Assembly: GCF_028368995.1 (NCBI RefSeq)
Contig: NZ_JAQNDL010000003.1
Span: forward strand, 2,432,001-2,496,000
DNA: 64,000 bases
Source: Nannocystis bainbridge
GTDB taxonomy: Bacteria; Myxococcota_A; Polyangia; Nannocystales; Nannocystaceae
Reading direction: 5' to 3'
Positions 3,180 through 60,304 of this stretch are shown here, piece after piece. Below the pieces are notes generated by a model. The model saw only the letters and a list, made by a program, of their open reading frames with translations, ran no database searches and was not told where the DNA came from. Numbering within the stretch: position 1 is the stretch's first letter; each line of letters starts with the position of its first letter. Made by a program: the position numbers and the translations under genes.

Positions 3180-3231
3180 GGACATGTCCGAACGAACATG
3201 CCCTCTCGCACATGTCCTCGCGGACATGCTC
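3180..3231. repeat. 14-bp-period CATG decamer array (4 units + 1 degenerate)
   Basis: GGACATGTCC gaac GAACATGCCC tctc GCACATGTCC tcgc GGACATGCTC; CATG cores at 3183, 3197, 3211, 3225. Confidence 0.9.
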
Positions 3232-3270
3232 GAAAGGGCAGCAGCGTCGGCGTGTCTGCCACCGGTCCGC

Positions 3271-5109
3271 TCAGGCCGGCGGGAGCGCCGGCGAGGGCTC
3301 GCGCGACTTGTTCGACAGCGGCTTGTCGTTCGGGCGCGCCGGCTCGGCCTTGTCGCCGAACAGCTCGCCGAGCTGGGCGGCGTCGGCCGGCGACGGCACG
3401 AGGACCGCCTTGGGCACGCCGACGGCCAGGCTGCCGAGGTTGGGGTCGAGCTTGACGCCGATGCCGACGGCCCCGCCGATGCGGGCGAAGGCGGCCGCGC
3501 CGGTCTCGATCTTCTTCAGCCGGGCCTTGTCGGCCCGCGACTCGGCGCTGCTCAGCACCGACAGCCGCAGCAGCGCGACCGGGTCGACGCTGACGCAGAA
3601 GTGGCAGCCCTGGCTGGCGGTCCGGGCCAGGCGCAGGCCGGCGTCGCCGCCGAGCGAGGTCTTGCGGCCCTTGAGCTCGGCGCCGATGTCGCCGGCGACC
3701 TTGGTGGCGCCGGCGCCGATGGTGAACACGGCGAGGTTGCCGGTCACGAACGAGGCGGCCTCGAGCTTCTTCTTGGCGACCAGGAACGGCTCGAGATCGG
3801 CTGCCTCTTTGGCCATGTTCTTCGGGACAGGGATCGTCAGCAGGTCGCCCTTGACCGGGCCGGCCTTGGCGCCGTCGGTCTTGAGGGTGAAGCCGATCTT
3901 GGCCGACTTGTCGTCGCCGGTGAGGCTGTCGAACGCGGCGAAGCCCTTGACCAGCGCCTGCTCGATGCCGCGGATGGCCGCCCGCGCGCCGGCCTCGTCC
4001 TTGACGTTGGCGGCCAGCACGGCGGTGGCCTCGCCCTTGGGCGAGAGGTAGAGCGCGAACACGACGTCGCTCTGGACCTGGTCGAGCACAGCGTGGGCGG
4101 CGGCGACGGCGTCCTTGGCGACGACGTCGAAGGGGGCGGGGATCTGGCTCAGCGGGACGCCCTTGTCGAGGGCGCCGTGGAGGGCCTCGGGGGTGCCCCA
4201 GGGCATGGCCACGACGAGGGCGGGGCCGGCCGGGAGGACGGCCTCGAGGGCGGTCGGGGCGGTCCGCGCCGGGCCCAGCGGCGACAGGCCGAGGCGCGAG
4301 AACGGGGCCTCGGCGGCGAGCTGCAGCGCGAGGTCGCGGTCGGTGCCAGCGTCGAGCTCGAGCGAGCCGGCGGTGGCCTCGCGCAGGACCGCCTGCACCT
4401 GCCTGCGCAGGCCGGCCGGCAAGCTGTTGAGGGCGCCGGTCTCGAGCATGCCGGGCGGCAAGTCGGTGCCGCGCAGGCGCAGCCGCCGACCCTGCCCGGC
4501 CTCGCCGGCGAGCCCGGCGGCGCGCTCGAGGTCGGCGTTCGACAGCGCGAACTCGAGGGCCTTGGGCTGCTCGCGCAGCAGCACCCGCAGCTCGCCCTGG
4601 ACCAGCTCCCACAGGCCGTTGCCGAGCGGCTGCGGCCGCTGCGCCGAGGGCATGCCGTCCATGACGCCCTTGGCGCTGACGGCCGCGAGGGTGCCGGCCA
4701 GCTTGAGGTCGTTGCTGGGGTCCTGGACGTGGAAGGTGGCGTCGACGGCGAACGGGCCGGCCAGATCGAGGTTGGCCCACAGACCGGGCCCGAAGCCCAT
4801 CTGCAGCAACATCGCCTGGATCTGCGCGGCCGGATCGATCGGCTGCTTGGGGGTCCAGGCGGTGGTGGTCTGCTTGACGAGGGCCATCAGGTCGCCGGCG
4901 CCGTGGAGGCTGGCGCGCAGCTTGACCGGCTTGCCCGGCGGAGGCTTGCGCGCGGGCCGCCCGCTCTGCCCGTCGCCCGCGCCGGCGCCGTCCTCCTGCG
5001 GTTCGTCGACCACAACGACGGCGGGCGGCGGAGTCTTCTTGGCGCAGCCAAGTGTGGCAGGAGCGACGACCATGGCGATCGTCCCGAGCGCGACGCGGGC
5101 GGTGAACAT
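3271..5109 (-). CDS. hypothetical lipoprotein (612 aa)
   Basis: Signal peptide ending TLGC, GC-typical codon usage, TACACT 7 nt upstream of ATG. Confidence 0.75.
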   Translation of the reverse strand: MFTARVALGTIAMVVAPATLGCAKKTPPPAVVVVDEPQEDGAGAGDGQSGRPARKPPPGKPVKLRASLHGAGDLMALVKQTTTAWTPKQPIDPAAQIQAMLLQMGFGPGLWANLDLAGPFAVDATFHVQDPSNDLKLAGTLAAVSAKGVMDGMPSAQRPQPLGNGLWELVQGELRVLLREQPKALEFALSNADLERAAGLAGEAGQGRRLRLRGTDLPPGMLETGALNSLPAGLRRQVQAVLREATAGSLELDAGTDRDLALQLAAEAPFSRLGLSPLGPARTAPTALEAVLPAGPALVVAMPWGTPEALHGALDKGVPLSQIPAPFDVVAKDAVAAAHAVLDQVQSDVVFALYLSPKGEATAVLAANVKDEAGARAAIRGIEQALVKGFAAFDSLTGDDKSAKIGFTLKTDGAKAGPVKGDLLTIPVPKNMAKEAADLEPFLVAKKKLEAASFVTGNLAVFTIGAGATKVAGDIGAELKGRKTSLGGDAGLRLARTASQGCHFCVSVDPVALLRLSVLSSAESRADKARLKKIETGAAAFARIGGAVGIGVKLDPNLGSLAVGVPKAVLVPSPADAAQLGELFGDKAEPARPNDKPLSNKSREPSPALPPA

Positions 5110-5122
5110 CGCGCGCAGTGTA

Positions 5123-9006: not shown

Positions 9007-10858
9007 CCCGAAGACCAGGTCGAAGGGCCGGGACGGCGCGCCGCAGGGCAGCACGTGGGCCGCGCTGCGCCGGTTCTGGCCGTACGCGCTGGCGCACAAG
9101 CGGTGGCTGTGGCTCGGCATGTGGATGATCCCGGTGGTCGCGGCGATGTCCGCCCTGCGCCCGCTGCTGGTCAAGCAGGCCGTCGACACCGACATCGCCC
9201 ACGGCGACCTGATCTCGCTGCGCGTCACCGGCATGCTGTTCCTCGCCGCGGTGATGGCCGAGTTCCTGGCCACCGCGGTCCAGGTCTACGCGCTGTCGCG
9301 GGCCGGCCACGCCACCATCACCGACCTGCGGCGCTCGATCTTCGGCCACGTGCTCAAGCTGCCGGCCCGCTTCTACGACAAGACGCCGATCGGCAACCTG
9401 CTCGCGCGCAGCACCAGCGACATCGAGGCGCTGAGCGAGACGCTCGCGTTCGGGGTGTTCACGATCCTCACCGACATCGCCGTGATCCTGTCGATCCTGG
9501 CGGCGATGTTCTTCCTCGACTGGCGGCTCACCCTGGTGTCGCTGGCCGCCGCGCCGCTGCTGTGGGTGATCGTGGTCCACTTCTCGGCCCGCCTGCGCAC
9601 GCTGCAGCTCGAGATCCGGCGCGCGCAGTCGGTCCAGAGCGGGTACCTGGCGGAGCAGCTGGCGGGCGTCACGGTGCTGCAGCTGTTCGGCCGCGAGCGG
9701 GCCGCCGTGCAGGAGTTCGAGCGGCTCGGCGACCGCTTCCTGCGCGCGGTCAAGACCGCCAACTGGTACGACGCCGGGCTCTACTCGGTGATGGACGGCG
9801 TCAGCGCGATGTGCGTGGCGCTGCTGATCTACTTCGCCGCGCCCTACCTGTTCGAGGACGTGGCCCGCAGCGGCGTGACCCTCGGCCTGCTGTTCGCGTT
9901 CATCGACTACCTGCAGCGGGTGTTCATCCCGATCCGCGAGTTCTCGGCCAAGCTCGCCACGATCCAGCGCGCGGTCGCCTCGCTCGAGCGGATCTACGGC
10001 CTCATCGACGAGCCGCCCGAGGCGCGCCTGCCCGCCGGCGCGAGCGACCCACTGCAGGGCTGGAGCGGCGGGCTGCAGGTCCGCGACCTCCGCTTCGGCT
10101 ACCGCGACGGCGGCTCCGACGTGCTCAAGGGCATCGACTTCGACATCGCCCCCGGCGAGGTCGTGGCGGTGGTCGGCCGCACCGGCTCGGGCAAGACCAG
10201 CCTCGGACGGATCTTGACCCGCACCTACGACGGCTACCGCGGCAGCGTCTCGCTGCAGGCGCCCGCGGGGTCGGTCGAGGTCCGCGACGTGGTCCCCGAC
10301 TGTCTCCGGGGACATGTCCTCATGGTCCAGCAGGACGTGTTCCTGTTCAACGACGACGTCGCGTTCAACGTCAGCCTCGGCGAGCCCGGCCTCGCCGACG
10401 AACCAGCGCGCATCGAGGCCGCGCTGCGCACGGTGCAGGCGTGGGAGTTCGTGCAGGAGCGCGGCGGGCTGTCGTTCGTGGTCGGCGAGCGCGGGCGCAA
10501 CCTGTCGGCCGGCGAGGCGCAGCTGCTGGCGTTCGCGCGAGTGGCCGCGCGCCAGCCGACGCTGCTCATCCTCGACGAGGCGACGGCGAGCGTCGACAGC
10601 ATGACCGAGCACAAGGTGCAGGCGGCGATCGAGCGGCTGCTCCGCGGGCGCAGCGTGCTGGTGATCGCGCATCGCTTGAGCACGGTGCGGCGGGCCGACA
10701 AGATCCTGGTGCTGCAAGACGGCGTGGTCGTCGAGCAGGGACCGCACGAGGTCCTGCTCGCGCGCGGCGGCGTGTACGCCGAGCTCTACCGCATGGGCTT
10801 CAAAGAGGAAGAAGACGACGGGAATAGCGGCGCGCAGCCCCCGGTTCCCGCGGCATGA
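8999..10858 (+). CDS. ABC exporter permease/ATPase, subunit 2 (MdlB-like)
   Basis: TM domain, GRTGSGKTS, LSAGEAQ, LILDEAT, IAHRLST; overlaps subunit 1. Confidence 0.92.
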   Translation: MADPKTRSKGRDGAPQGSTWAALRRFWPYALAHKRWLWLGMWMIPVVAAMSALRPLLVKQAVDTDIAHGDLISLRVTGMLFLAAVMAEFLATAVQVYALSRAGHATITDLRRSIFGHVLKLPARFYDKTPIGNLLARSTSDIEALSETLAFGVFTILTDIAVILSILAAMFFLDWRLTLVSLAAAPLLWVIVVHFSARLRTLQLEIRRAQSVQSGYLAEQLAGVTVLQLFGRERAAVQEFERLGDRFLRAVKTANWYDAGLYSVMDGVSAMCVALLIYFAAPYLFEDVARSGVTLGLLFAFIDYLQRVFIPIREFSAKLATIQRAVASLERIYGLIDEPPEARLPAGASDPLQGWSGGLQVRDLRFGYRDGGSDVLKGIDFDIAPGEVVAVVGRTGSGKTSLGRILTRTYDGYRGSVSLQAPAGSVEVRDVVPDCLRGHVLMVQQDVFLFNDDVAFNVSLGEPGLADEPARIEAALRTVQAWEFVQERGGLSFVVGERGRNLSAGEAQLLAFARVAARQPTLLILDEATASVDSMTEHKVQAAIERLLRGRSVLVIAHRLSTVRRADKILVLQDGVVVEQGPHEVLLARGGVYAELYRMGFKEEEDDGNSGAQPPVPAA

Positions 10859-12342
10859 GCTCATCCTCGATCCGGTCCCGACGACTCCGTTCGCCGCAGG
10901 CGCTGCTCGCCTTCCTCGGCCTGACGACGATCGGCGGCGCAGCGGTCGCACTCGGGTATCACGACCAGGCCGAAGCCGCGGACGACCCGCCCGCGGCCAC
11001 CGCCGCCAGCACGCTCTGGCGCGAGGGCAGCGGCGCGCCGGTGGTCGGCGGCGAATTCGACCCCCGCCGCAGCCTGGCCCCGCTCGTCAAGGAGCTGTCG
11101 CCCGCGGTGGTCAACATCCGCGCCTATGGCAAGCGCGCGCAGCTCGACATGCAAGGCGTCGACCCGCGCATGCTGCCGTTCCTCGAGCAATTCAATATGG
11201 GCCCGGGCGCCGAGGCGCCGCCGCAGCAGGGCATCGGCTCGGGCTTCGTGCTCACGCCCGACGGCCTGGTGGTCACCAATCACCACGTGGTCAACGGCAC
11301 CGAGCGGCTCGAGGTCAAGCTGCACGACGGCCGCATGTACAAGGGCAAGGTGCTCGGCTCCGACCCGTACACCGATATCGCCCTGGTCCAGCTCGAGGGC
11401 GCGAGCGGGCTCAAGACGGCGACGCTCGGCAACAGCACCGCGCTGTCGGTCGGCGACTGGGTGATGGCGATCGGCTCGCCGATGGGCCTCGAGCAGACGG
11501 CCACCGCCGGCATCGTCTCGGCCAAGGGCCGCGGCAGCCTCGGGCTCTACGCCAACAGCTACATCGATTTCTTGCAGACCGACGCCTCGATCGCGCCCGG
11601 CAGCAGCGGCGGGCCGCTGTTCAACATGGCGGGCGAGGTGGTGGGCATCAACACGGCGGTCGGGGGGATCGGCCGCGGGCTGGGGTTCGCGGTCCCGGTC
11701 GATCAAGCAAAGACGGTGATCCCGCAGCTCAAGGCGTCCGGCAAGGTGGTGCGCGGGTGGCTGGGGATCTCCGGCCGCGAGATCGAGCCGGCCGTGGGCC
11801 GCGCGCCAGAGGCCGGCGCGGTGGTGGGGACGGTCCAGGCGGGGACGCCGGCGGCGCAGGCGGGCCTGCGCGCGGGCGACCGGGTGACCGCGATCAACGG
11901 CCGCGACGTGCTCAACTTCAGCGACCTCCGCGGCCGCGTCGCCGACACCAAACCTGGCTCTCAGGTCATCCTGTCGGTCGACCGCGGCGGCAAGCAAGTC
12001 GACCTCAAGGCGACGATCGGCAAGCTGCCGAGCGAGGACGAGCTGCAGCGCTCGGCCCGCCGCATGAACGGCGAGCCCGGCAAGCTGTTCCCCGACGGCC
12101 AGCCGCGCCTCGGGGCCCAGGTCGAGGCCAAGGACGGGCTCCTGACGGTCCGCAGCGTGATGCCCGGGTCGCTCGCCGACGAGCTCGGCCTGCGCGAGGG
12201 CGACGTGCTGCAGACGATCAACGGCCAGAAGGTGACGCAGGTCGGCGACGTCGCCGGGGCGCTGGCGAGCGACGACGGCAAGGTGGCCGTCGAGGTGAAG
12301 CGCGGCGGCTCGACCCACTCGGCGATGATCGAGCGTCGCTGA
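10855..12342 (+). CDS. HtrA/DegP-like serine protease with two PDZ domains
   Basis: GSGF, TNHHV, DIAL, QTDASIAPGSSGGPL, RGWLG, two PDZ-like repeats. Confidence 0.92.
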   Translation: MSSSSIRSRRLRSPQALLAFLGLTTIGGAAVALGYHDQAEAADDPPAATAASTLWREGSGAPVVGGEFDPRRSLAPLVKELSPAVVNIRAYGKRAQLDMQGVDPRMLPFLEQFNMGPGAEAPPQQGIGSGFVLTPDGLVVTNHHVVNGTERLEVKLHDGRMYKGKVLGSDPYTDIALVQLEGASGLKTATLGNSTALSVGDWVMAIGSPMGLEQTATAGIVSAKGRGSLGLYANSYIDFLQTDASIAPGSSGGPLFNMAGEVVGINTAVGGIGRGLGFAVPVDQAKTVIPQLKASGKVVRGWLGISGREIEPAVGRAPEAGAVVGTVQAGTPAAQAGLRAGDRVTAINGRDVLNFSDLRGRVADTKPGSQVILSVDRGGKQVDLKATIGKLPSEDELQRSARRMNGEPGKLFPDGQPRLGAQVEAKDGLLTVRSVMPGSLADELGLREGDVLQTINGQKVTQVGDVAGALASDDGKVAVEVKRGGSTHSAMIERR

Positions 12343-12454: not shown

Positions 12455-12534
12455 CGACATGTCGATGTGGATATGTCCATGACGACATGTCCAATTCGAC
12501 ATGTTTTTAAAGACATTTCCCGAGGGGCATGTCC
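12455..12534. repeat. 14-bp-period CATG decamer array (6 units)
   Basis: CGACATGTCG atgt GGATATGTCC atga CGACATGTCC aatt CGACATGTTT ttaa AGACATTTCC cgag GGGCATGTCC, between convergent htrA-like gene and trxB. Confidence 0.9.
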
Positions 12535-12611: not shown

Positions 12612-13544
12612 CTACAGGTGCTCGGCGAGCCAGCGCTCGGCGTCGATCGCCGCCATGCAGCCGGTGCCGGCCGCGCTGACCGCCTGGCGGTAGACCTTGT
12701 CGGCCACGTCGCCGCAGGCGAACACCCCGGGGATGTTGGTCGCGGTCGAGCCGGGGCGGACCTTGAGGTAGCCGGTCTCGTCCATGTCGAGCATGCCCTT
12801 GAAGATGTCGCTGTTGGGCTGGTGGCCGATGGCGAGGAACAGGCCCGTCACTGCCAGCTCGCGGGCGCCCCCGGTCACCGAGTCGCGCAGGGCCAGGCCG
12901 ACCACCCGGTCGCCGCCGAGCACGTCGTCGACCTCGGTGTTGTAGTGCACCGTGATCTTCGGGTTCTCGATCGCGCGGGTCTGCATGATCTTGCTGGCGC
13001 GGAACGTGTCGCGCCGGTGGATCAGGTGGACGTTGCGGCACATGCGGGTGAGGAACGTGGCCTCCTCCATCGCCGTGTCGCCGCCGCCGATCACCGCCAC
13101 GTCCTGGTTGCGGTAGAACGCCCCGTCGCAGGTCGCGCAGGCCGTCACGCCGCCGCCCGACATGCGCAGCCGCTGCTCGTTGGGCAGGCCGAGCCACTTG
13201 GCCGACGCGCCGGTGGCGATGATGAGCGCGTCGCCGTGATAGGTGTCGGCCTCGCCCTCGACCACGAAGGGCCGGCGCGACAGGTCGACGCGCATGCCCA
13301 TGTCGTAGTGGAGCTGGGTGCCGAAGCGCTCGGCCTGCTGGCGGAACTCCTCCATCATGTCGGGGCCGGTGATGCCCTTGGGGAAGCCCGGATAGTTCTC
13401 GACCTCGGTAGTCGTGGTGAGCTGGCCGCCCGGCTCGGGGCCGGCGATCATCACGGGCTCCAGGCTCGCGCGCGCGGCGTAGATCGCGGCGGTGTAGCCC
13501 GCGGGGCCCGAACCGAGGATGAGGACTCTGCTGTGCGTCGGCAT
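12612..13544 (-). CDS. trxB: thioredoxin-disulfide reductase
   Basis: GSGPAGYTAAIY, GGQLTTTTEVENYPG, CATCDG, GGGDTAMEEA, GVFACGDV, YRQAVSAAGTG. Confidence 0.96.
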   Translation of the reverse strand: MPTHSRVLILGSGPAGYTAAIYAARASLEPVMIAGPEPGGQLTTTTEVENYPGFPKGITGPDMMEEFRQQAERFGTQLHYDMGMRVDLSRRPFVVEGEADTYHGDALIIATGASAKWLGLPNEQRLRMSGGGVTACATCDGAFYRNQDVAVIGGGDTAMEEATFLTRMCRNVHLIHRRDTFRASKIMQTRAIENPKITVHYNTEVDDVLGGDRVVGLALRDSVTGGARELAVTGLFLAIGHQPNSDIFKGMLDMDETGYLKVRPGSTATNIPGVFACGDVADKVYRQAVSAAGTGCMAAIDAERWLAEHL

Positions 13545-13751: not shown

Positions 13752-13775
13752 TGACATGGCCCGAAGGACATGTCC
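13752..13775. repeat. 14-bp-period CATG decamer pair
   Basis: TGACATGGCC cgaa GGACATGTCC; cores at 13755 and 13769. Confidence 0.65.
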
Positions 13776-14599: not shown

Positions 14600-14770
14600 C
14601 GGGCGAGCGCCGGCCCGACGAACCTTGCGACGTGTCGCGTCGCAAGGTTCGTCGCGACGTGCGAGCGCCGGCCGACGAGCGCGAGCGCCGGCGACCTGTC
14701 GCGTCGCGAGGTTCATTGCGGCGTCCGAGCGCCGGACCGAGGAGCGCGAGCGCCGGCTACGTGTCGCACC
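14600..14770. repeat. REP-like palindromic cluster
   Basis: Perfect 17-bp stem 14616-14632/14638-14654 plus about five copies of CGAGCGCCGG. Confidence 0.6.
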
Positions 14771-14805: not shown

Positions 14806-14902
14806 CATCATGTCTCTTCGGACAGCCGCGTTCGAGCCCCGGCAGGTCCCCCCGACATGTCTCATGGGCCATCTTTATGAACATGTCTCTTCGGACATGT
14901 CC
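14806..14902. repeat. CATG decamer array, partly out of phase
   Basis: Cores at 14809/14823, 14856/14870, 14882/14896 (pairs 14 bp apart), e.g. GAACATGTCT cttc GGACATGTCC. Confidence 0.7.
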
Positions 14903-15701: not shown

Positions 15702-15780
15702 GCGGCGGCGTTTCTATTTTTATTAAAGCTGCGTTACCTGGGGGGCGCCAGCGCGCCAGCGCGCCGGGCGCAGATCGCTG

Positions 15781-15846
15781 GACCATGTTCTTTCAGACAT
15801 GCCCTCGCGGACATGCTCCATCGGACATGCCCTCACAGACATGTCC
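15781..15846. repeat. 14-bp-period CATG decamer array (5 units)
   Basis: GACCATGTTC tttc AGACATGCCC tcgc GGACATGCTC catc GGACATGCCC tcac AGACATGTCC; cores 15784, 15798, 15812, 15826, 15840; convergent junction. Confidence 0.92.
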
Positions 15847-18458: not shown

Positions 18459-18604
18459 GTCGAGATCCCAGAGAGGCCGCGTACAGGGTTACGGCCGGCG
18501 GTGCATGTATACCGCGTCCTGCGCGCGAATTGGGTGAGGATCCACACCGGAGCCGCGAACGGGCCGGTCGGTCGCACACACCGACGCGCGTGTACACCCG
18601 AACC

Positions 18605-19771
<1,167 letters not shown>

Positions 19772-19782: not shown

Positions 19783-19848
19783 GGACATGCCCTCCGGGGC
19801 ATGTCCCTCCCGACATGTAAAAAGGGACATGCTCCGCAGAGCATGTCC
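19783..19848. repeat. 14-bp-period CATG decamer array (5 units)
   Basis: GGACATGCCC tccg GGGCATGTCC ctcc CGACATGTAA aaag GGACATGCTC cgca GAGCATGTCC. Confidence 0.92.
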
Positions 19849-27120: not shown

Positions 27121-28721
27121 TGACCGTGCCCTCTGCCCCCCAGCGGGTTCGCGTCGACCTCCACCCCGACGCCCTCCTCGACCCCGCCGCCCTGCGCACC
27201 GCCGCCGCCCGCGCGGCCGGCCTGCGCGAGGCCGAGGTCCGCCACGTCGAGGTCGCCCACCGCTCGATCGACGCCCGCCGCGGCCGCGTCCGCGTCCACG
27301 TCGAGCTCGTCGTGCATGTCGGCAAGGACATGCCCGAAGCGCCATGTTACTTGCCACATGTCCTACCGAACATGTCCCAGGAGCCAGCCGTCGTCATCGT
27401 CGGCGCCGGGCCGGCGGGGCTGTTCTGCGCCTGGGGCCTGGCGCGCGCCGGCGTGCGCGCGGTCGTGCTCGAGCGCGGGCGCGACGTGCGGGCGCGGCGG
27501 CACGACCTCGCCGGGCTGAGCCAGCGCGGCGAGCTCGACCCCGAGAGCAACTACTGCTTCGGCGAGGGCGGCGCCGGCACCTACTCCGACGGCAAGCTCT
27601 ATACTCGCGCGACCAAGCGCGGGCCGGTAGATCTGGTCCTGCAGGCCTTCGCCGGCTACGGCGCGCCTGCGGAGATCCTCGTCGACGCCCGGCCGCACAT
27701 CGGCACCAACCGGCTGCCGCGGGTGATCACCGCCATGCGCGAGCACCTCATCGGCGCCGGCGTGGTGGTCCGCTTCGAGGCCCGCGCCGACGCCCTGGTC
27801 GTGCACGACGGCGCGGCCGCGGGCGTGCGCCTGCGCGACGGCGAGGTCGTGCCGGCCCGCGCCGTCGTCGTCGCGCCCGGCCACTCGGCCCGCGACGTCC
27901 AGGCCTGGCTGCGCGCGGCCGGGGTCCAGCTGTCCTTCAAGTCGTTCGCGCTCGGCGTCCGCATCGAGCACCCGCAGGCGCTCGTCGACCGCCTGCAGTA
28001 CGGCGCGCTCGCCGGTCACCCGGCGCTCGGGGCCGCCTCTTACCGCCTCGTCGAGCAGACCAGCGCGGGCGCGGCCTTCTCGTTCTGCATGTGCCCCGGC
28101 GGCTACATCGTGCCCGCGGCCACCGACCCTGGCATGCAGGTCGTCAACGGCATGAGCCCGCACAGCCGGCGCGGCCTGTTCGCCAACTCGGGGCTCGTCA
28201 CCGAGGTCGGCCCGCAGCACCTCGCCGCCGCCGGCCTGTCGCCCGCCGACCCGCTCGCCGGCGTCGAGTATCAGTCGCGCTTCGAGGCCGAGGCCTACCG
28301 CGCCGGCGGTGGGGCCTTCGTCGCCCCGGCCCAGCGCCTCGCCGACTTCGTCGCCGGCGCCCTCTCGCCCGAGCTGCCGCCGACCAGCTATCACCGCGGC
28401 CTCCAGCCGGCCCGCCTCGACCGGCTGCTCGGCCCGCTCGGCCCGCCGCTCCAAGCCGCGCTGCAGGCCCTCGGCGCGCGCATGCCGGGCTTCCTCGGCG
28501 ACGACGCGATCGCCGTGGGTGTCGAGAGCCGCACCAGCTGCCCGGTCCGCATCGACCGCGACGGCGAGACCCTCGAGTCGCCGAGCACCCCGCACCTCTA
28601 CCCGTGCGGCGAGGGAGCGGGATTCGCCGGCGGCATCGTCTCCGCCGCGCTCGACGGCCTCCGCGTCGCGGTCGCCATCGCCCGTCGCCTCGGCGCCCCG
28701 CACGAGCGGATTACGAGCTGA
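27120..28721 (+). CDS. NAD(P)/FAD-dependent oxidoreductase
   Basis: IVGAGPAGLF, FGEGGAGTYSDGKLYTR, PHIGTN, GHSARD, GVRIEHPQ, SFCMCPGG, PCGEGAGFAGGIVSAALDG. Confidence 0.92.
   Translation: MTVPSAPQRVRVDLHPDALLDPAALRTAAARAAGLREAEVRHVEVAHRSIDARRGRVRVHVELVVHVGKDMPEAPCYLPHVLPNMSQEPAVVIVGAGPAGLFCAWGLARAGVRAVVLERGRDVRARRHDLAGLSQRGELDPESNYCFGEGGAGTYSDGKLYTRATKRGPVDLVLQAFAGYGAPAEILVDARPHIGTNRLPRVITAMREHLIGAGVVVRFEARADALVVHDGAAAGVRLRDGEVVPARAVVVAPGHSARDVQAWLRAAGVQLSFKSFALGVRIEHPQALVDRLQYGALAGHPALGAASYRLVEQTSAGAAFSFCMCPGGYIVPAATDPGMQVVNGMSPHSRRGLFANSGLVTEVGPQHLAAAGLSPADPLAGVEYQSRFEAEAYRAGGGAFVAPAQRLADFVAGALSPELPPTSYHRGLQPARLDRLLGPLGPPLQAALQALGARMPGFLGDDAIAVGVESRTSCPVRIDRDGETLESPSTPHLYPCGEGAGFAGGIVSAALDGLRVAVAIARRLGAPHERITS
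27312..27377. repeat. 14-bp-period CATG decamer array inside a CDS (5 units)
   Basis: GTGCATGTCG gcaa GGACATGCCC gaag CGCCATGTTA cttg CCACATGTCC tacc GAACATGTCC; cores 27315-27371 every 14 bp. Confidence 0.88.
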
Positions 28722-30031: not shown

Positions 30032-30111
30032 GGACATGCTCGAACGAGCATGTCCCGAACGACATGTCTTGAGTGACATGCCCCGACGGGCATGTCACTT
30101 CAGACATCTCA
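30032..30111. repeat. 14-bp-period CATG decamer array (6 units)
   Basis: GGACATGCTC gaac GAGCATGTCC cgaa CGACATGTCT tgag TGACATGCCC cgac GGGCATGTCA cttc AGACATCTCA; convergent junction. Confidence 0.92.
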
Positions 30112-30906: not shown

Positions 30907-31796
30907 GCCGCCGCTCCTGCCGCGTGGCGGGCCAGCGCCGCCTGGTACACCGCGTCGACGCGGTCGCGCTCGGCCAGCAGCTCGGCCAGCGGCGGGATGT
31001 TCTCGTCGCGCTCGAGCAGGACCGGCAGCGCACCTGTCCTTTCGATCACCCACGCCAGCAGCGCGTCGACCTCGCTGCGAACCGGCGCCCCGTGGGTGTC
31101 GATGATCAGGTCGCGGCGCTCGTCGTCCCAGAACTCGTGACCGGCCACGTGCAGCTGGACCACCCGATCGAGCGGGACTCGGGCCAACCACTCGAGCGGG
31201 TCGAAGCCGAAGTTGCTCGCGTTGACGAACACATTGTTGACGTCGAGCAGCAGCCCGCAGTCGGCCCGCTCGAGCACCTCGACCACGAACGCCGCCTCGT
31301 CGAGCGGCGCCCCCCCGAGCGGCAGGTAGTAGCTGATGTTCTCGACCAGCATCGGCCGCTCCAGCCGCTCCGACACCTCGCGCACGCGGGCCGCCACGCG
31401 CCTGGCCGACGCCGTCGTCCACGGCAGCGGCAGCAGGTCGTGCAGCATCTTGCCGTCGTGGCCCGAGAAGCACAGGTGGTCCGAGTGCCACGGCGACCGC
31501 AGGCCGGCGTCGAGGAACCCGCGCAGGCCCGCCAAGAATTCCGCGTCGAGCGGATCGAGCCCGCCGAGCGACAGCGACAGCCCGTGCGAAAGGATCGGGA
31601 ACCGCTCCGCCACGCTCGCCAGGCGGGCCGGTCGGCTGCCGCCGCGCGCCACGTAGTTGTCCGGTGAGACCTCCCAGAACGGCACCCGCCCGTCGGCCGC
31701 CCCGCGATCGACCTCCGCGAGGAACGGCCCGCGCAGCCCGAGGCCGACCCCGGTGGGCACCGCGGCGCGCGCGGATATACCTGCTCGAAAAGACAT
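30903..31796 (-). CDS. DUF692 family multinuclear non-heme iron oxidative enzyme (MNIO)
   Basis: GVGLGLR, HGLSLSLG, SDHLCF, HDLLPLP, VENISYY, LLLDVNNVFVN, HVAGH, IDTHG, LLERDENIP; true start may be GTG at 31760. Confidence 0.93.
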   Translation of the reverse strand: MSFRAGISARAAVPTGVGLGLRGPFLAEVDRGAADGRVPFWEVSPDNYVARGGSRPARLASVAERFPILSHGLSLSLGGLDPLDAEFLAGLRGFLDAGLRSPWHSDHLCFSGHDGKMLHDLLPLPWTTASARRVAARVREVSERLERPMLVENISYYLPLGGAPLDEAAFVVEVLERADCGLLLDVNNVFVNASNFGFDPLEWLARVPLDRVVQLHVAGHEFWDDERRDLIIDTHGAPVRSEVDALLAWVIERTGALPVLLERDENIPPLAELLAERDRVDAVYQAALARHAAGAAA

Positions 31797-31814
31797 GTCC
31801 GAAGAAACAGTGTG
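31777..31814. repeat. degenerate 14-bp-period decamer array (3 units)
   Basis: ATACCTGCTC gaaa AGACATGTCC gaag AAACAGTGTG. Confidence 0.5.
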
Positions 31815-31833
31815 GGGTCTCGGCCGACCCCGC

Positions 31834-37100: not shown

Positions 37101-37167
37101 GAACATGTCTCAGGGGTCAGATGGCCGGTCCACCGGCGACCGGCGCCATGTCCCTCGGAACATGTCC
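37101..37167. repeat. CATG decamer cluster
   Basis: GAACATGTCT at 37101; CGCCATGTCC ctcg GAACATGTCC with cores at 37147 and 37161. Confidence 0.65.
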
Positions 37168-51993: not shown

Positions 51994-52116
51994 GCAGCGG
52001 CGCGCCTCGACGCGCCACTGCGGACTCGCTTACGCGCGCTCTTCCACGCGAGCGAGACCGCAGCGGTGCGCCTCGACGCGCCGCTGCGGACTCGCGCGCT
52101 CGTCCGCACGAGCGAG
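51994..52116. repeat. two ~66-bp direct repeats each containing a hairpin (REP-like)
   Basis: GCAGCGG(C/T)GCG-cctcga-CGCGCC(A/G)CTGC GGACTCGC at 51994 and 52060. Confidence 0.65.
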
Positions 52117-52445
52117 TTCGTCGCGCCGAGCTCGCCCGCACGAGCGCCTTCGCCGCCAGGAACTCGCGCTGAGCGGCTCTGCCTCGCGGCGAAAGTGACA
52201 GTGCCCGCCGCCCTCATGCGCACCCGCGCCCGATCCGCTCCTGCTGTCCCACACGCGGCCGGCGACAGCGCCTCCGTGACCGGGTTCCCGGCCGACGCGA
52301 TCGCTGTCACTTTCTCCCCCGCCGACATCGCCCCGGCGTCCGGGTTCCCGCCGCGGCGCACCTGCTTCGCCCGCGACAACGGCCCCTGACGCAGGTTCCC
52401 GGGCGAGTTCGTCGCGTGCTGCCCACACATTTTTTCGCGACCCGA

Positions 52446-52562: not shown

Positions 52563-52614
52563 GAGCCTGCTCGTCGAGACAGTACCCAAAGAACATGTCC
52601 CTTCGGTCATTTCA
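52563..52614. repeat. degenerate 14-bp-period decamer array (4 units)
   Basis: GAGCCTGCTC gtcg AGACAGTACC caaa GAACATGTCC cttc GGTCATTTCA. Confidence 0.5.
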
Positions 52615-55420: not shown

Positions 55421-57382
55421 ATGCCCGCTGTCGACGACCCTGCCGCGCGCCCGTCCGGGCCCGAGCCATCGGGGTCGTCTGCGCCGGAGCGGCCCGTGCG
55501 GCTCGTCTTCGCCGCCCTGCTGATCCTCGCCTTCCATCTCGGGTGGTTCGCCTATTTCGTCCCGCTCGAGGTCTGGTGGACCGACACCCCGATCGCCGGC
55601 GTCGACTTCGAGACTCACGTCGGCCAGACCTGGCGCTTCATCGAGGCCATGGACGGCTGGGGTCACAGCTGGATGTACGACCCGCGGCTGCTCGCCGGCT
55701 ACTTGCAGGGCGTCATCTTCGACGCCGACAACAAGGGCTGGGAGGTCTGGACCTGGCTCTTGAGCCATGCTGGTCTGTCCGCCGGGTTCGCCTTCAACCT
55801 GTTCGCCGCCCTCGCCCACCTCGGCGTGCTGCCGGTCGTCTACGCCTCCGCGCGGCTGTTCGACCTCACGCGCCGCGGCGCCTTGCTCGCCGCCGGCCTC
55901 GCCTCGGCGCTGTGGTTCTTCGACTCCTTCTCGCACTGGTGCTGGTGGATCGGCATGGTCGCCTACGCCTTCTGCGCCTACCTCGCGCTGCTGCCGCTGG
56001 CGCTGTTCTACCGCTGGACCCGCGAGCGCAAGCCGTGGCAGGGCGTCGCCGCCGGGCTCACCCTCGGCCTCGCCCACCTCGTCCACCCCTACACCTTCGT
56101 CATCCTGGTCGCGCCGATGCTCGCGCTGTGGCTCCGCGAGCTGCGTCGCCTCGGCGCGCGCGGCCACTTCGCCGTGCTGGCGATGGTCGTCTTCACCCTC
56201 GTGCTCAACACCTGGTGGCTCGCCGTCGCCGCCCGCTTCTGGCACTACATCCTCGACTCCGGCTTCTTCGGTCAGTCGGGCCCGCAGTGGCTGCTCGCCG
56301 ACTACCTCGGCCTCGTGCTCGACACCGCCACCTCCGGCCTGCTCGGCACCCGCACCGGCTTCCGCTTCCTCGTCCTCGGCGCCGCGCTGGTCGGCCTGTG
56401 GCGCTGGCGACGGGCCCGCGACCCGCGGACCTTGCCGCTGGCGACCGCGGTGGTGGCGATGCTCCTGCTCGCCTACGCCGCCGGTTACATCTGGCTCTTC
56501 AGACAGATCCAGCCGTACCGCCACGTCCTCCCGCTCGCCTTCCTCGCCGTCATCCCCGCCGCCGCCGCGCTCGAGTCGACCCGCCTGCGCGCGCTGTGGC
56601 GCGAGCTGACCCCGCCCGCGCGCCTGCTGACGTTCGCCCTCGCCCTGCCGGCCGGCCAGCTGCTGCTGCGCGACATCCTCTACTTCACGCCCGCGCACCT
56701 GCCCGAGGTCGCCCCGCTGTACAGCGGCGAGAAGGTCCTGCTGGCCGCCAGCGGCTACCCGGCGCACCCGGACTACCGGCTGTTCGCCGCCCGGCCCGAG
56801 CACGGCGAGATGACGAAGTGGGTCCGCGAGGTCGACGACGGCCAGAGCCGCTTCCTGGTCGAAGAGCCAGCCGTGGGCGAGCGGCTGCACTGGCAGACCG
56901 ACGCCCAGATCATCGGCGGCTTCCGCTTCCGCAACCTCGAGCACAGCATGGCCAACCTCTACCGGCGCCACAAGTTCGGGGTCGCCGGCGAGGACCAACT
57001 GCGCACCTACTTCGAGACCTACGCGGTGCGCTGGGTGATCGTCACCAGCAACGCGACCTGGTGGAACCAGCGGCCCGACCTGCTCGTACCGGCCGGCAAG
57101 GTCGGCCACCACCGGATCTTCCGCACCACGATCGAGCCGCACCTGATCCAGCAAGGCGGCGGCACGGTGGTCGCGGGGCCCAACCTGCTCCGCGTCACCG
57201 GCAGCGACCCGAACATCGACCTCGTGCTGCGCTTCCACTGGATGGAGTACCTGGTCTGTGAGCCAGGTTGCGAGCTCCGGCGCGAGAAGATCGACGACCT
57301 CGACCACGTCGGCTTCATCCGCGTGCCCGCGCCGCACCCCGCCGACCTCGACATCGTCAATCGCTACGGAGAGGCCCCATGA
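55421..57382 (+). CDS. polytopic membrane protein, GT-C glycosyltransferase-like
   Basis: About 12 TM segments, acidic residues in first loop (DFETH), YDPRLLAGY, HP motif, QPYRH, soluble C-terminal domain. Confidence 0.6.
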   Translation: MPAVDDPAARPSGPEPSGSSAPERPVRLVFAALLILAFHLGWFAYFVPLEVWWTDTPIAGVDFETHVGQTWRFIEAMDGWGHSWMYDPRLLAGYLQGVIFDADNKGWEVWTWLLSHAGLSAGFAFNLFAALAHLGVLPVVYASARLFDLTRRGALLAAGLASALWFFDSFSHWCWWIGMVAYAFCAYLALLPLALFYRWTRERKPWQGVAAGLTLGLAHLVHPYTFVILVAPMLALWLRELRRLGARGHFAVLAMVVFTLVLNTWWLAVAARFWHYILDSGFFGQSGPQWLLADYLGLVLDTATSGLLGTRTGFRFLVLGAALVGLWRWRRARDPRTLPLATAVVAMLLLAYAAGYIWLFRQIQPYRHVLPLAFLAVIPAAAALESTRLRALWRELTPPARLLTFALALPAGQLLLRDILYFTPAHLPEVAPLYSGEKVLLAASGYPAHPDYRLFAARPEHGEMTKWVREVDDGQSRFLVEEPAVGERLHWQTDAQIIGGFRFRNLEHSMANLYRRHKFGVAGEDQLRTYFETYAVRWVIVTSNATWWNQRPDLLVPAGKVGHHRIFRTTIEPHLIQQGGGTVVAGPNLLRVTGSDPNIDLVLRFHWMEYLVCEPGCELRREKIDDLDHVGFIRVPAPHPADLDIVNRYGEAP

Positions 57383-58251
57383 TCGCGGCGCTGCGGATCC
57401 TCTTCAACGTCGCGCTGTACCGGCTGCGGCGGCTCGAGATGGCCAACATGGGCGGCGCGCTGCTCATCATGCTCGCGCTGCGCTTGTCGCCGCTCGACGT
57501 CGTGGTCCGGCTCGGCTTCGCCTTTTTGCTCAACCTGCTCGTCTACCTCAACAACGACTACCTCGACCTGCCGACCGACCTGCGCTCGCCCGAGCGCGAC
57601 GACGCCAACACCCGCTACCTCCGCGACCACCGGCGCGCGGCCCTCGGCGCCCAGCTCGGCCTGGTCGGCGCGCTGCTGGTCGTCGCCTTCGCCTGGGACC
57701 TCGGCCTGCTCATCCCGCTGGTCGTCGGCGGCGGCGTGTGCTGGCTGTACTCGGCGCGGCTCAAGCACGTCGCCGGGGCCGACATCGCCGCGATGATGGT
57801 GTGGGGCGCAGCGATGTTGACGGTCGCGTTCCCGCCGACGCACGCGCTCGGGTGGGCGCTGGCCGGCCTGCTCGCGCTCGACTCGGCGGTGTTCGAGACG
57901 ATCCAGGTCATCCGCGACCACGACGCCGACCGCGACACCGGCGTGCGCACGACCGCCGTCGCGCTCGGCGTCCCGCGCACCCTCGCGCTCGCGCGCGGCC
58001 TGCTGGTCCTCGGCGCTGGCGCCGCCGCGCTGGCGATCCACCCGCTCGTCGCCCTGCCGCCGTTGATCGGCGTCACCCTGCCGCTCGGTCGCCCGGAGCG
58101 CTACTGGAACCTCATCCGCGTGCTCCTCGGCGTCGCCTTCTTGTTCGCCGCCGGGTGGGTCTACGTCCACGGCGCGACCGCGGGTCTGCTGGTCCGCTGC
58201 GCCCTGGACGGCTGTACGGCGTCACCTGGCCTTTCGGCCATGTCGCAATAA
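57379..58251 (+). CDS. UbiA family prenyltransferase
   Basis: YLNNDYLDLPTD, LYSARLK, RDHDADRDTG Asp-rich motifs; ATGA overlap with upstream gene. Confidence 0.8.
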   Translation: MIAALRILFNVALYRLRRLEMANMGGALLIMLALRLSPLDVVVRLGFAFLLNLLVYLNNDYLDLPTDLRSPERDDANTRYLRDHRRAALGAQLGLVGALLVVAFAWDLGLLIPLVVGGGVCWLYSARLKHVAGADIAAMMVWGAAMLTVAFPPTHALGWALAGLLALDSAVFETIQVIRDHDADRDTGVRTTAVALGVPRTLALARGLLVLGAGAAALAIHPLVALPPLIGVTLPLGRPERYWNLIRVLLGVAFLFAAGWVYVHGATAGLLVRCALDGCTASPGLSAMSQ

Positions 58252-58373: not shown

Positions 58374-58417
58374 GAACAGCGCTTCAGTCTAGCGAAGTTT
58401 TGTCGGAGCGGCCGCAC

Positions 58418-60175
58418 ATGTCCCAAGAAGCACGTTATGACACCCACTTCTCGAGCCCCGCGGACGTCGAGGAGTTCGTCTCGGTCCTCGAGCGGTTCGA
58501 GCGCGGCGAGATCTCGTCGGAGGACTTTCGCACCTTCCGCCTGAAGCGCGGCGTCTACGGGCAGCGGCAGATGGAAGTGAACATGCTGCGGGTCAAGTTC
58601 CCCGGCGGCATCATGAGCGCGGCCCAGCTGCGGACCGCGGCTGGCGTGGCCCGCGAGTACACGCAGTTCCACAAGGGCCACATCACCACCCGGCAGAACA
58701 TCCAGTTCCACTTCGTCAAGCTGGCCGACATGCCCGAGGTCATGGGCCGCTTCGACGTCACCGGCGCGACCACCCGCGAGGCCTGCGGCAACACCGTCCG
58801 CAACGTCACCGGCTGCCCGTACGCCGGCGTCAGCGGCACCGAGGCCTACGACATCACCCCGTACATGCACGCGCTCGTGCGCATGTGCCTGCGCGAGGAG
58901 TGGGCCAACAACCTGCCGCGCAAGTTCAAGATGGCCTTCGAGGGCTGCACCCACGAAGACCACGCGCAGACGGCGATCAACGACGTCGGCTTCCGCGCCA
59001 AGAACAAGGACGGCGTGCGCGGCTTCGAGGTGTTCGTCGCCGGCGGCCTGTCGACCAGCCCGCGCCCGGCCTATCGCCTCCACGACTTCATCCCGGCCGA
59101 CGAGATGCTGGCGCGGACCGAGGCGATCATCCGCGTGTTCGACAAGCACGGCAACCGCAAGAACCGCGCCCGCGCCCGCCTCAAGTACGTCATGAAGGCG
59201 CTGGGCGAGGCGGGCTTCGTCGCCGCCTACGAGGAGGAGGTCGCCAAGCTGGTGGCCGCCGGCACGCTGCAGCGGCCGATCGAGCTGCCGCCCGAGGAGA
59301 CCGCGCCGGCGTGGAACGACCGCGCCCTGGCCGGCCCGCGCGCCAGCGACGACGACCCGCAGTACAAGGAGTGGCTGCGCACCGTCGACCCGCAGAAGCA
59401 GCCGGGCTTCGCCGCCGTGACGATCAAGCTCGACCGCGGCGACATCGCGGCCGACCAGTTCGACCAGCTCGCCGAGCTCGCCGAGACCTTCACCGACGGC
59501 ACCCTGCGCGCCGGCAACCGCCAGAACCTCATCGTCCGGTGGGTCCGCACCGAGTACCTGCCGCACCTGTTCGTCGCGCTGCAGCAGATCGGCGTCGCCG
59601 ACCTCGGCTCCAACACGATCCACGACGTCGTCAGCTGCCCGGGCGCCGACAGCTGCAACCTCGCCGTCACCCACAGCATGAGCCTGGCCAAGCACCTGAC
59701 CCGCTTCCTCAAGAACGCGGGCCAGTCGGCGGACAGCGTCGAGCTCGCGCGCACCGCCGACATCAAGATCTCCGGCTGCCCCAACTCGTGCGGCCAGCAC
59801 CACGTGGCGGCGATCGGCTTCCACGGCACCGTGCGCCACGTCGGCGACGGCAAGCAGGTCCCCGAGTACCAGCTCCACCTCGGCGGCGGCTTCGACGCTG
59901 ACGGCGTCCAGTTCGGCCGTCACATCGTCAAGATCCCCGCGCGCCGGGCCGGCGAGGCCCTCCTGCGCCTGCTCGACCTCTACCGCGACGAGCGCGAGGA
60001 CGGCGAGGAGGCCCGCGCCTTCTTCCGTCGCGTCGCCAAGGAGGACGTCGTCGCGGCGCTCGGCGACGCCCTGCTCGACAGCCAGTTCACCAACCTGCGC
60101 GAGGACGACGTGTTCGACCTCGGCCAGGAGCGCACCTTCGACGTGGCCATCGGCCGCGGCGAATGTGCCGCCTGA
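58418..60175 (+). CDS. siroheme/[4Fe-4S] nitrite/sulfite reductase
   Basis: GVYGQRQ, MLRVKFPGG, TTRQNIQFH, LPRKFK, CPGADSC and SGCPNSCGQH cluster ligands. Confidence 0.93.
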   Translation: MSQEARYDTHFSSPADVEEFVSVLERFERGEISSEDFRTFRLKRGVYGQRQMEVNMLRVKFPGGIMSAAQLRTAAGVAREYTQFHKGHITTRQNIQFHFVKLADMPEVMGRFDVTGATTREACGNTVRNVTGCPYAGVSGTEAYDITPYMHALVRMCLREEWANNLPRKFKMAFEGCTHEDHAQTAINDVGFRAKNKDGVRGFEVFVAGGLSTSPRPAYRLHDFIPADEMLARTEAIIRVFDKHGNRKNRARARLKYVMKALGEAGFVAAYEEEVAKLVAAGTLQRPIELPPEETAPAWNDRALAGPRASDDDPQYKEWLRTVDPQKQPGFAAVTIKLDRGDIAADQFDQLAELAETFTDGTLRAGNRQNLIVRWVRTEYLPHLFVALQQIGVADLGSNTIHDVVSCPGADSCNLAVTHSMSLAKHLTRFLKNAGQSADSVELARTADIKISGCPNSCGQHHVAAIGFHGTVRHVGDGKQVPEYQLHLGGGFDADGVQFGRHIVKIPARRAGEALLRLLDLYRDEREDGEEARAFFRRVAKEDVVAALGDALLDSQFTNLREDDVFDLGQERTFDVAIGRGECAA

Positions 60176-60212
60176 GTTCGCCCCCCCCGCTCCGCACCGA
60201 CCGACCAAACTG

Positions 60213-60242
60213 GCGACAGGCTCCCGGGCCTGTCGCTTTTTT
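60213..60242 (+). terminator. rho-independent terminator
   Basis: GCGACAGGC...GCCTGTCGC followed by TTTTTT. Confidence 0.8.
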
Positions 60243-60304
60243 ATGTCCCGACACCGCCGCGCGGAGTCACATGTCCATCCGGACATGTCCTCGAAGACAG
60301 CAAT
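60239..60304. repeat. 14-bp-period CATG decamer array
   Basis: Cores at 60242 (TATG), 60270, 60284, 60298 (CAGC): TCACATGTCC atcc GGACATGTCC tcga AGACAGCAAT; convergent junction. Confidence 0.75.

Follow-up and report, generated by a model that had tools for sequence, protein, structure and literature searches.

Phased arrays of a hyper-abundant CATG-centred palindrome follow the stop codons of Nannocystis genes

The 64,000-nucleotide stretch of the Nannocystis bainbridge genome analysed here (hereafter the window; contig NZ_JAQNDL010000003.1, positions 2,432,001 to 2,496,000) carries, between and occasionally within its genes, short tandem arrays of a palindromic decamer, GGACATGTCC, and of its degenerate form, GGRCATGYCC. 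The original prediction, made from the letters of the window, described about 13 loci with two to six decamers whose CATG cores recur at exactly 14 bp, and this description holds. When CATG cores 14 or 28 bp apart are chained strictly, 13 arrays result, and the pattern CATGN10CATG occurs 27 times against an expectation of 0.46 (standard deviation 0.67, maximum 3, in 100 dinucleotide-preserving shuffles). Six of the arrays are clear, with 4–5 CATG cores (3180, 12455, 15781, 19783, 27312 and 30032), four have two units whose arms are good (13752, 14879, 37144 and 60267), and the pairs at 14974, 44058 and 46890, which have poor arms, are probably chance pairs. At the weaker loci (14806, 31777, 37101, 52563, 58222 and 60239) only one or two units are good; the units beside them keep the register but are decayed, with CCTG, CAGT or CATT as cores. 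Five arrays were predicted to occupy convergent gene junctions, and by our own gene calls five do (12455, 15781, 19783, 30032 and 60267). The principal loci are as follows, with no strand assigned unless stated.

3180..3231: four-unit CATG-core array in 14-bp register, 40 nt 3' of the stop of the minus-strand gene 3271-5109
12455..12534: six-unit in-register array (CATG in four units, the variants TATG and CATT in the other two) in the convergent gap of 10855-12342 (plus) and 12612-13544 (minus); found in three of four related species
13752..13775: two-unit array, its sequence and place kept in four of four related species
14853..14902: two-unit array (14879-14902) and a good out-of-register unit at 14853; unaligned in relatives
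15781..15846: five-unit array in the convergent gap between a response-regulator gene (15072-15701, plus) and a DUF5916 gene (15861-18458, minus); cores and register kept in five species, with 3–5 units
19783..19848: five-unit array separating two convergent genes, one of the isocitrate/isopropylmalate dehydrogenase family (18590-19771, plus) and one for a UvrD-like helicase (19868-22318, minus)
27312..27377, plus strand: five-unit in-frame array inside the gene 27117-28721 of an FAD-dependent protein
30032..30111: five CATG units and one CATC unit, filling the convergent gap of 28852-30021 (plus) and 30109-30906 (minus)
31777..31815: decayed three-unit array in register (CCTG, CATG, CAGT), just 3' of the stop of the minus-strand gene 31834-33291
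37101..37167: a single good unit (37101) followed by a two-unit array (37144-37167), between the co-directional genes 35275-37089 and 37162-38532
52563..52614: decayed four-unit array in register (CCTG, CAGT, CATG, CATT)
58222..58245: two in-register units (CCTG, CATG) at the 3' terminus of gene 57379-58251
60267..60290: two units flanked by decayed ones, separating the convergent genes 58400-60175 (plus) and 60311-61867 (minus)

The source genome (G000; 90% complete, five contigs, 11.05 Mb, 71% G+C) contains 39,940 copies of CATG. Pairs of these occur 3736 times at a distance of 14 bp, 2073 times at 28, 1586 at 42, 751 at 56 and 383 at 70, against 72 at 13 bp, 262 at 15 and 79 at 16. This sharp autocorrelation bears out the original view of a dispersed, chromosome-wide cis-feature. 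All counts given here are of strict CATG-core arrays, as loose chaining with a position weight matrix (PWM; extension score of at least 3) inflates the matches in coding DNA. On this basis the genome holds 2074 arrays, 954 of them with at least three cores and the longest with 16. The spacing of PWM hits is equally rigid (3790 at 14 bp, 30 at 13 bp and 33 at 15 bp).

The repeating unit is GGRCATGYCC plus a free 4-nt spacer of about 55% A+T. Conservation of the core was scored without bias on the middle unit between CATG cores 28 bp apart, and this unit carries CATG in 1670 of 2073 cases, with a per-base conservation of 92–94% in the core against about 70% in the arms; most deviations are found in the outer bases. 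Among the core variants, CCTG (70), CAGG (62), CATT (58) and AATG (41) are the commonest, and the rarest are the transitions that RNA wobble pairing tolerates, namely CGTG (4), CACG (7), TATG (22) and CATA (22). Adjacent spacers are identical in 75 of 1670 cases (19 by shuffle) and complementary in 36 (19 expected), and 10 of 1649 three-unit stretches are common to more than one locus. It is the period and the core that are conserved, as had been proposed, and not a copied sequence. Arrays become steadily rarer as unit number increases, with even numbers not favoured over odd ones, the spacers show neither odd/even alternation nor a preference for oriented tetraloops, and the outer arms of two-unit arrays are conserved, which identifies the decamer itself as the unit. 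Taken together, these properties indicate that units and spacers are equivalent, in the manner of a lattice.

Some arrays carry recent duplications of 14, 28 or 42 bp, and a few are built entirely of a non-palindromic unit with a CAGG core. One such array (C3:1054304-1054411) fills a convergent gap with eight units of GGACAGGYCC and repeated spacers, indicating that expansion by slippage is possible without a CATG core. An origin of the family from an ancestral CCTG/CAGG hairpin was considered and rejected, with only four or five such 14-bp pairs found under strict arms.

The position of the arrays relative to genes was determined with our own codon-usage gene caller, which calls about 85% of the genome coding and places starts approximately. 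An array is present in 654 of 1504 convergent gaps (43%), in 604 of 5221 co-directional gaps and in 130 of 1503 divergent gaps. Arrays with at least three cores start at a median of 20 nt past the upstream stop, those between co-directional genes lie a median of 189 nt upstream of the next start, and the longest fill convergent gaps nearly exactly. Both the anchoring to stop codons and the share of convergent gaps that are occupied suggest a role at gene ends. Along all five contigs the arrays are fairly evenly distributed, and they preferentially follow genes with strong native codon usage (0.519 versus 0.476 per codon, p about 2e-21). Arrays on both sides were found for 32 genes, as is expected within co-directional gene runs.

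Conservation was measured in one 8-kb region between the window and four related species. The DUF5916 protein of the window is 92–93% identical to the proteins of N. punicea, N. pusilla, N. exedens and Nannocystis sp. RBIL2. In this alignment, pairwise identity is 0.932 in coding DNA (0.9 gap events per kb), 0.687 in intergenic DNA outside arrays (39.2 per kb) and 0.666 in arrays (9.0 per kb). Indels are accordingly about four-fold rarer in arrays than in other intergenic DNA, and several of the nine array gap events stem from one unaligned and one lost array. Five window arrays fall in the 8-kb stretch, of which three are found in four of four relatives and one in three of four, the fifth being unalignable; the arrays keep their place across related species, as the original prediction would have it. 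Where the arrays align well, with 3–5 units, the CATG cores hold their register and the arms and spacers vary freely. Combined with the rarity of indels, this points to selection on the core and its phase and not on the rest of the unit.

The strong 4-bp core with its non-wobble variants, the palindromic units, the rigid register with suppressed indels and the equivalence of units and spacers together argue for a reader that is sequence-specific, symmetric and dependent on spacing, and the simplest candidate would be a cooperatively binding, dimeric DNA-binding protein. A phase-dependent and probably cooperative reader had been put forward originally, and it would fit both the preference for 14-bp spacing and the four-fold suppression of indels in DNA whose substitutions look neutral. 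The interpretation that we tentatively prefer, at a little under even confidence, is that the arrays are phase-dependent, selected binding sites at gene ends for such a sequence-specific protein, and that any hairpin or terminator activity is secondary.

Under this interpretation, GGACATGTCC would be a hyper-abundant palindrome of the Nannocystis clade in which selection keeps the CATG core and, in arrays, the exact 14-bp register. Each decamer would be read on double-stranded DNA by a putative symmetric (dimeric), sequence-specific protein, with cooperativity between adjacent dimers and three units to every four turns of the helix. This would make the arrays protein lattices directly after stop codons, above all between convergent genes, and these lattices may mark or insulate gene ends as a barrier to read-through, collision or supercoils. 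Slippage in blocks of 14, 28 or 42 bp would lengthen and shorten the arrays, which can also arise in place by point substitution. RNA hairpins of neighbouring palindromes would be a secondary property, with a minority of unit pairs refined into true hairpins, some of them acting as bidirectional terminators. Head-to-tail short sites with a fixed period and a variable copy number, bound by a dimer at each site, are familiar from the metboxes of MetJ, the heptads of the omega repressor and the iterons of ParR, and the Nannocystis arrays resemble these in their architecture. Those systems occupy one or few loci per replicon and have a known protein, whereas Nannocystis has about 2000 loci and a protein that we infer.

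Several observations weigh against this interpretation. The reader and its binding are putative, and the gene contexts derive from a caller that surely misplaces some starts. Sense RNA of the arrays folds slightly better than antisense (−0.422 versus −0.397 kcal/mol per nt, p = 0.002), and on the transcribed strand of co-directional pairs units of the form G..T outnumber those of the form A..C (322 versus 209, p about 1e-6) with symmetric spacers, which indicates some selection at the level of RNA or single strands. The arrays at 30032 and 19783 fold into almost perfect hairpins (z about −9 to −11); in the former, units 1–2 and 4–5 are exact reverse complements around which units 3 and 6 pair, and in the latter, units 4–5 with a flanking A-run and T-run (about 19818-19854) have the anatomy of a bidirectional terminator, kept in five species. 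Further, 55 of 954 arrays with at least three cores lie in open reading frames (ORFs) that code on both sides in the same frame, and single decamers inside genes have no positional bias along them (p about 0.10). A strong roadblock would be harmful in such places, and a motif that is driven or tolerated fits them at least equally well. Lastly, the arrays are not simply the terminators of the organism, given that tRNA genes have ordinary terminators and that the deficit of terminators beside arrays is modest (see below).

Some of these points would be accounted for if the arrays were an RNA-level family comparable to the repetitive extragenic palindromes (REPs) and bacterial interspersed mosaic elements (BIMEs) of enterobacteria and pseudomonads. 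These are high-copy, hairpin-forming extragenic palindromes that cluster at 3' ends, including those of convergent genes, and are reported to bind proteins such as gyrase and IHF and to stabilise upstream mRNA. In Nannocystis, such elements would be hairpins in 3' untranslated regions that stop or slow RNA polymerase or shield mRNA from 3' exonucleases, in both directions at convergent junctions, and they would have spread by slippage, with their common sequence a sign of common descent. The extragenic placement past stops, common between convergent and rare between divergent genes, is shared with REPs. The arrays fold far better than their shuffles (−0.42 versus −0.23 kcal/mol per nt, 327 arrays), and the G/U bias of the transcribed-strand arms and the terminator-like unit pair of the 19783 array are what such a family would show. 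The excess of identical neighbouring spacers and the 14-, 28- and 42-bp duplications are signs of slippage. In two array-less relatives (L016 and L024) a plain hairpin stands at the orthologous 3' end. At a third orthologous 3' end, that of the Nannocystaceae metagenome-assembled genome (MAG) ABC2.134 (L022:8504-8589), a 22-bp tandem repeat of 3.9 copies with 96% matches contains the palindrome GTGATCAC; it was considered as a dispersed family of its own and set aside, being apparently a single recent duplication.

The fit of an RNA-level family is poorer in other respects, and we consider it rather unlikely. Adjacent units are hardly more complementary than random pairs (7.89 versus 7.66 of 12 positions; 5.7% versus 2.0% reach 11 or more paired positions), and the mutual information of partner positions is about 0.02 bits, which argues that RNA pairing is not the main constraint. 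The C at +4 stands opposite an A of the neighbouring unit in 631 of 1142 pairs, the core variants are opposite to what wobble tolerance would favour, and a hairpin loop need not be exactly 4 nt long. There is generally no trailing U-run (the T fraction after arrays is about 0.12, as in the background) and, as noted above, no preference for even numbers of units. Arrays within genes and the enrichment of single copies there would also be unexpected. Structurally, REPs are imperfect palindromes of 20–40 nt that fold on themselves, and the Nannocystis unit is 10 bp, unable to fold alone, and exactly spaced. REPs are tied to REP-associated tyrosine transposases (RAYTs), and a search for the RAYT Y1 transposase (Y1_Tnp, PF01797) gave no match at E ≤ 0.001 in the 90%-complete G000, the same search being positive in 6 of 14 control genomes. 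This absence, with multi-unit sequence so rarely common to loci, argues that no mobile-element machinery is involved. Rfam 15 at gathering score likewise returned no match across the whole window, and both searches agree with the original impression that the arrays are not a described element.

The relation of the arrays to intrinsic terminators can be described more closely. The two have in common a position after stops, and they differ in that arrays generally lack a U-run and pair poorly, the unit pair at 19818-19854, with its full terminator anatomy, being an exception. A GC-rich hairpin and T-run stand after many tRNA genes, their stems unrelated to the arrays, and an array lies within 150 nt 3' of only 5 of 102 tRNA genes. 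For the scoring of terminators the arrays were masked, as they themselves score as hairpin plus T. After masking, terminators are found at 9–11% of array-bearing convergent ends versus 39% of those without, and at 17–21% versus 42% of co-directional ends. The lower share arises mainly from the little room that the arrays leave. Of 1277 array-bearing convergent 3' ends, 671 retain fewer than 30 testable positions and have the array alone in the gap, which also suits an RNA-level role, and only 11 of these 671 have a hairpin-plus-T terminator. Per testable kb, the deficit of terminators beside arrays is about 20–30% relative to array-free gaps. The arrays are thus only partly terminators, and terminator-like unit pairs are exceptions. 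No RNA run from a pure culture was found, those listed having shares of 0.05–0.18. Four root metatranscriptome runs, whose contigs are 90–97% alike and so represent relatives, covered only conserved gene bodies; none of the listed contigs bridged an array, and these data are uninformative either way.

Gene calls are overlapped by 111 of the 954 arrays with at least three cores. The array at 27312-27377, one of the 55 in-frame cases mentioned above, encodes a linker (residues about 66–88) just before the Rossmann domain of the FAD-dependent protein. The orthologous linker is 25 residues long with or without an array. In six close genomes it holds 3–5 phased cores in unusual codons with low G+C at the third position, in a more distant member of the genus it holds two units (CATG then CCTG), and in still more distant orthologues there are none. 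The constant length and the two-unit intermediate indicate that this array arose in place by substitution, without insertion, an origin shown at this one site. In a second in-gene array (C2:2022976) species differ by blocks of 14 residues, each equal to 42 bp and so to three units, the least number that preserves the frame; it lies in a linker whose hypervariability makes insertion and in-place origin indistinguishable. Orthologues of a third (C3:1013323) were found only in close species.

Single decamers are also strongly enriched in genes. Expectations were derived from codon shuffles, as maximum-order Markov models are uninformative when the 9-mers are themselves enriched. Among 5952 confident array-free genes GGACATGTCC occurs 118 times, against 14.0 by synonymous-codon shuffle and 3.9 by whole-codon shuffle, an 8-fold to 30-fold enrichment that extends to all three frames and runs against codon bias; in the two rare-codon frames 36 and 10 copies stand against 0.3 and 0.2 expected. 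Four control palindromes are at or under expectation in genes. A fifth, GGATCGATCC, is mildly enriched (25 versus 5.5), and GATC is among the most enriched array spacers (97 versus 17 expected); together these may represent a second, weaker palindrome signal with the CGATCG core known from HIP1, the hyper-abundant palindrome of cyanobacteria discussed below. The genome contains 956 exact copies of GGACATGTCC (575 in arrays, 208 single in genes and 173 single and intergenic) against 1 copy of its reversed control, and several thousand degenerate GGRCATGYCC units. Per Mb, single decamers number 116 in non-array intergenic DNA versus 22 in coding DNA. The excess of decamers in genes and the array born by substitution together suggest that a genome-wide force favours the site.

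Triple-core phased hits number 1670 in this genome, 1005–1162 in five other large genomes of the genus, 2–62 in five MAGs of the genus and 0–4 in the other genera searched. Across 73 genomes of the family, four-core hits occur in all 11 genomes of the genus (409–869 in the six large ones, 1–13 in the five MAGs), in a single genome (G053, 22 hits) among the seven of a second genus, in two of six of a third (10 and 2 hits) and in one of 11 of a fourth (1 hit); none were found in the remaining family genomes searched. Exact decamers number 640–956 per genome in the six large Nannocystis genomes, 43–206 in the MAGs of the genus, 243 in G053, 19–77 in the other genomes of two neighbouring genera and 1–21 in the remaining genera, with 0–7 copies of the reversed control. 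Abundance is therefore graded across the family and not all-or-none. A genome of another genus of the family, G061, has 13 exact decamers and yet 10 four-core phased CATG hits; its arrays may carry different arms and possibly represent a dialect of the motif.

The DNA uptake sequences (DUS) of Neisseria and the uptake signal sequences (USS) of Haemophilus are motifs of about 10 bp with a strong core, spread evenly at about one per kb, with clade dialects, and presumably built up by point substitution; those of Neisseria often form inverted pairs that act as terminators. The decamer resembles them in its length, its short strong core, its density, its even spread, its restriction to a clade, its tolerated positions within genes and its presumed build-up by substitution, and differs from them in that they are non-palindromic, form no phased tandem arrays and are read by the competence machinery. 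Homologues of ComEC and DprA are encoded in the genome, as in most bacteria, and are too nearly universal to be diagnostic of uptake. On comparative grounds, the closest known counterpart of the decamer is the cyanobacterial HIP1 (GCGATCGC), and the phased, 3'-anchored architecture of the arrays appears to be new. Like the decamer, HIP1 is a short, GC-rich palindrome hugely over-represented in the coding and non-coding DNA of one clade; an origin by substitution has been reported for it, and its function and reader are unsettled. Propagation of HIP1 by nucleotide substitution is attributed to Robinson (1997), as cited in PMC4390886.

The hyper-abundant palindromes of cyanobacteria have been on record for some thirty years with no agreed function (PMC5861425, PMC13756078), and uptake sequences are named as one class of over-represented oligomers (PMC4390886). 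HIP1 is likewise conserved between related genomes and has lineage variants and outer-base deviations (PMC4390886, PMC5861425). For the arrays, conservation between genomes beyond the neutral level is seen in the register of their cores, at an overall identity close to that of other intergenic DNA (0.666 versus 0.687). The periodicity of HIP1 along the chromosome is given as 10–90 kb (PMC5861425), in contrast to the mostly rigid 14-bp, stop-anchored arrays of Nannocystis, and one HIP1 paper (PMC4390886) contains neither the word 'tandem' nor the word 'terminator'. The Nannocystis motif differs further in being a decamer with an AT-containing CATG core and in belonging to the Myxococcota. Considering the enrichment in genes, the in-place origin, the graded distribution and the outer-base deviations, all hallmarks of HIP1, we class the decamer as a HIP-like palindrome with new phased, 3'-anchored arrays. 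The element had originally been called undescribed, and in part this stands: no description of the arrays was found in the openly accessible literature on Nannocystis and myxobacterial repeats and on the decamer (subscription-only papers fell outside the scope), but HIP1 is a close precedent. The 15 of 47 papers listed for the decamer dealt with p53 and other unrelated subjects, none of them with bacterial repeats.

This likeness gives weight to an explanation in which a HIP1-like or uptake-like motif is favoured genome-wide, either through bias in some process or through a function at the scale of the genome (a repair ratchet, recombination or natural transformation, for example), and has no local role at gene ends. 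Copies, and the arrays grown from them by slippage, would gather where they are least harmful: after stops, in convergent gaps and in tolerant linkers. We hold it to be somewhat unlikely. It would account for single decamers enriched evenly along array-free genes, for the in-gene array born by substitution, for arrays spread evenly along contigs and preferentially following genes of native codon usage, and for the graded abundance in the family. The concentration of deviations in the outer bases matches what Elhai reports for HIP1 (PMC4390886), and HIP1 is reported to be conserved by selection within and between ORFs (PMC5861425) and, in a 2024 preprint, to improve natural transformation (10.1101/2024.09.10.611283). 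The presence of ComEC and DprA would also be in keeping with it. A motif selected one copy at a time leaves the 14-bp register and the suppression of indels unexplained, as well as the median start 20 nt past the stop. The repair model of Elhai, which depends on 5-methylcytosine, would lack its parts, as neither a C5 methyltransferase nor Vsr was found in the 90%-complete G000, and no methyltransferase profiled tracks the motif.

Methylation deserves separate mention. CATG is a known target of methyltransferases, and the original prediction raised the possibility that the phased sites are methylated and that their binder senses this, much as SeqA does at clusters of GATC. The genome encodes one D12 (Dam-like) adenine methyltransferase, about nine homologues of PF01555 and several of PF02384, and cyanobacterial HIP motifs co-occur with cognate methylases (PMC4390886); no such enzyme has been linked to the Nannocystis decamer. 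The phyletic profile of the methylases does not follow the arrays: D12 is present in 69 of 73 family genomes irrespective of arrays, the mapped PF01555 methylases of G000 have orthologues in array-free genomes, and G053 (67% complete), which has arrays, has only two PF01555 genes, both with orthologues in array-free congeners. Thus no methyltransferase profiled (D12, PF01555) tracks the arrays across the family genomes; the PF01555 mapping leaves out four G000 loci (L112, L115, L116 and L117), and the PF02384 members fell outside the profiling. A methylation-based reading is very improbable in our estimation, and this part of the original interpretation was not upheld. The cis-system, its register and its conservation did withstand scrutiny, and the binding protein stays putative. 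The abundance of single decamers within genes, the anchoring to stop codons, the refinement of some unit pairs into bidirectional terminators and the precedent of HIP1 had no place in the original prediction.

Other explanations were argued against on general grounds. A CRISPR-like array would have longer units, a Rho loading site would be neither so structured nor so G-rich, a CsrA sponge would not have a core more conserved than its GGA, and neither Z-DNA nor a cruciform alone would account for sequence specificity. The decamer had also been noted to resemble a p53 half-site; the P53 domain (PF00870) has no match in the genome, in a search for which that family offered no positive control genome, and the resemblance is, as far as can be told, a coincidence. 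The readings based on a protein lattice, a global motif, RNA and methylation are not mutually exclusive.

A few further features of the sequence should be noted. The minus-strand gene adjoining the 30032 array (30109-30906) encodes a DUF2063 'putative DNA-binding domain' and an NGO1945 C-terminal domain, with no evidence of a tie to the arrays. Between the response-regulator stop and the 15781 array, an AT-rich segment (15711-15740) holds GGTAACGCAGCYTTAAT on the minus strand, constant in five of five species amid varying surroundings, and it may be a small regulatory or terminator element. Tandem repeats of 96 bp (and 288 bp) at 35718-36465 and 37810-38013, in genes 35275-37089 and 37162-38532, encode Cys/Asp/Gly-rich repeats that presumably belong with the cysteine-rich repeats common in myxobacteria. 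Tandem repeats that look non-coding and are unrelated to the CATG arrays occur at 14627-14767 (64 bp, 2.2 copies) and 51994-52167 (66 and 32 bp, about two copies each). About 60 kb past the end of the window (C2:2556665-2559233), roughly 27 tRNA genes are packed into 2.6 kb; their spacers are AT-rich, in contrast to the genome at large, and this cluster may be a tRNA array borne by a phage or island.

The decamer of Nannocystis provides a second, independent case of a hyper-abundant palindrome, in a phylum other than the cyanobacteria and with readable extra features in its phase and place. What was a vague statistical oddity becomes a concrete biochemical question, testable in the cultivable and sequenced N. 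exedens DSM 71, N. pusilla and N. punicea. With about 2000 arrays and thousands of units per genome, the motif affects the annotation of 3' ends, the prediction of terminators and assembly; the arrays bear on the design of expression constructs for Nannocystis natural-product producers, and those in frame add blocks of 14 residues to proteins. A bolder form of the protein-binding interpretation, which we regard as doubtful, is that the arrays are nucleation pads for a putative clade-specific protein that polymerises in a lattice of three units per four turns and insulates transcription and supercoiling at some 2000 sites, among them just under half of the convergent junctions. Should this be true, it would constitute a chromosome-wide cis/trans system without a described bacterial counterpart and would offer the first mechanistic handle on hyper-abundant palindromes such as HIP1.

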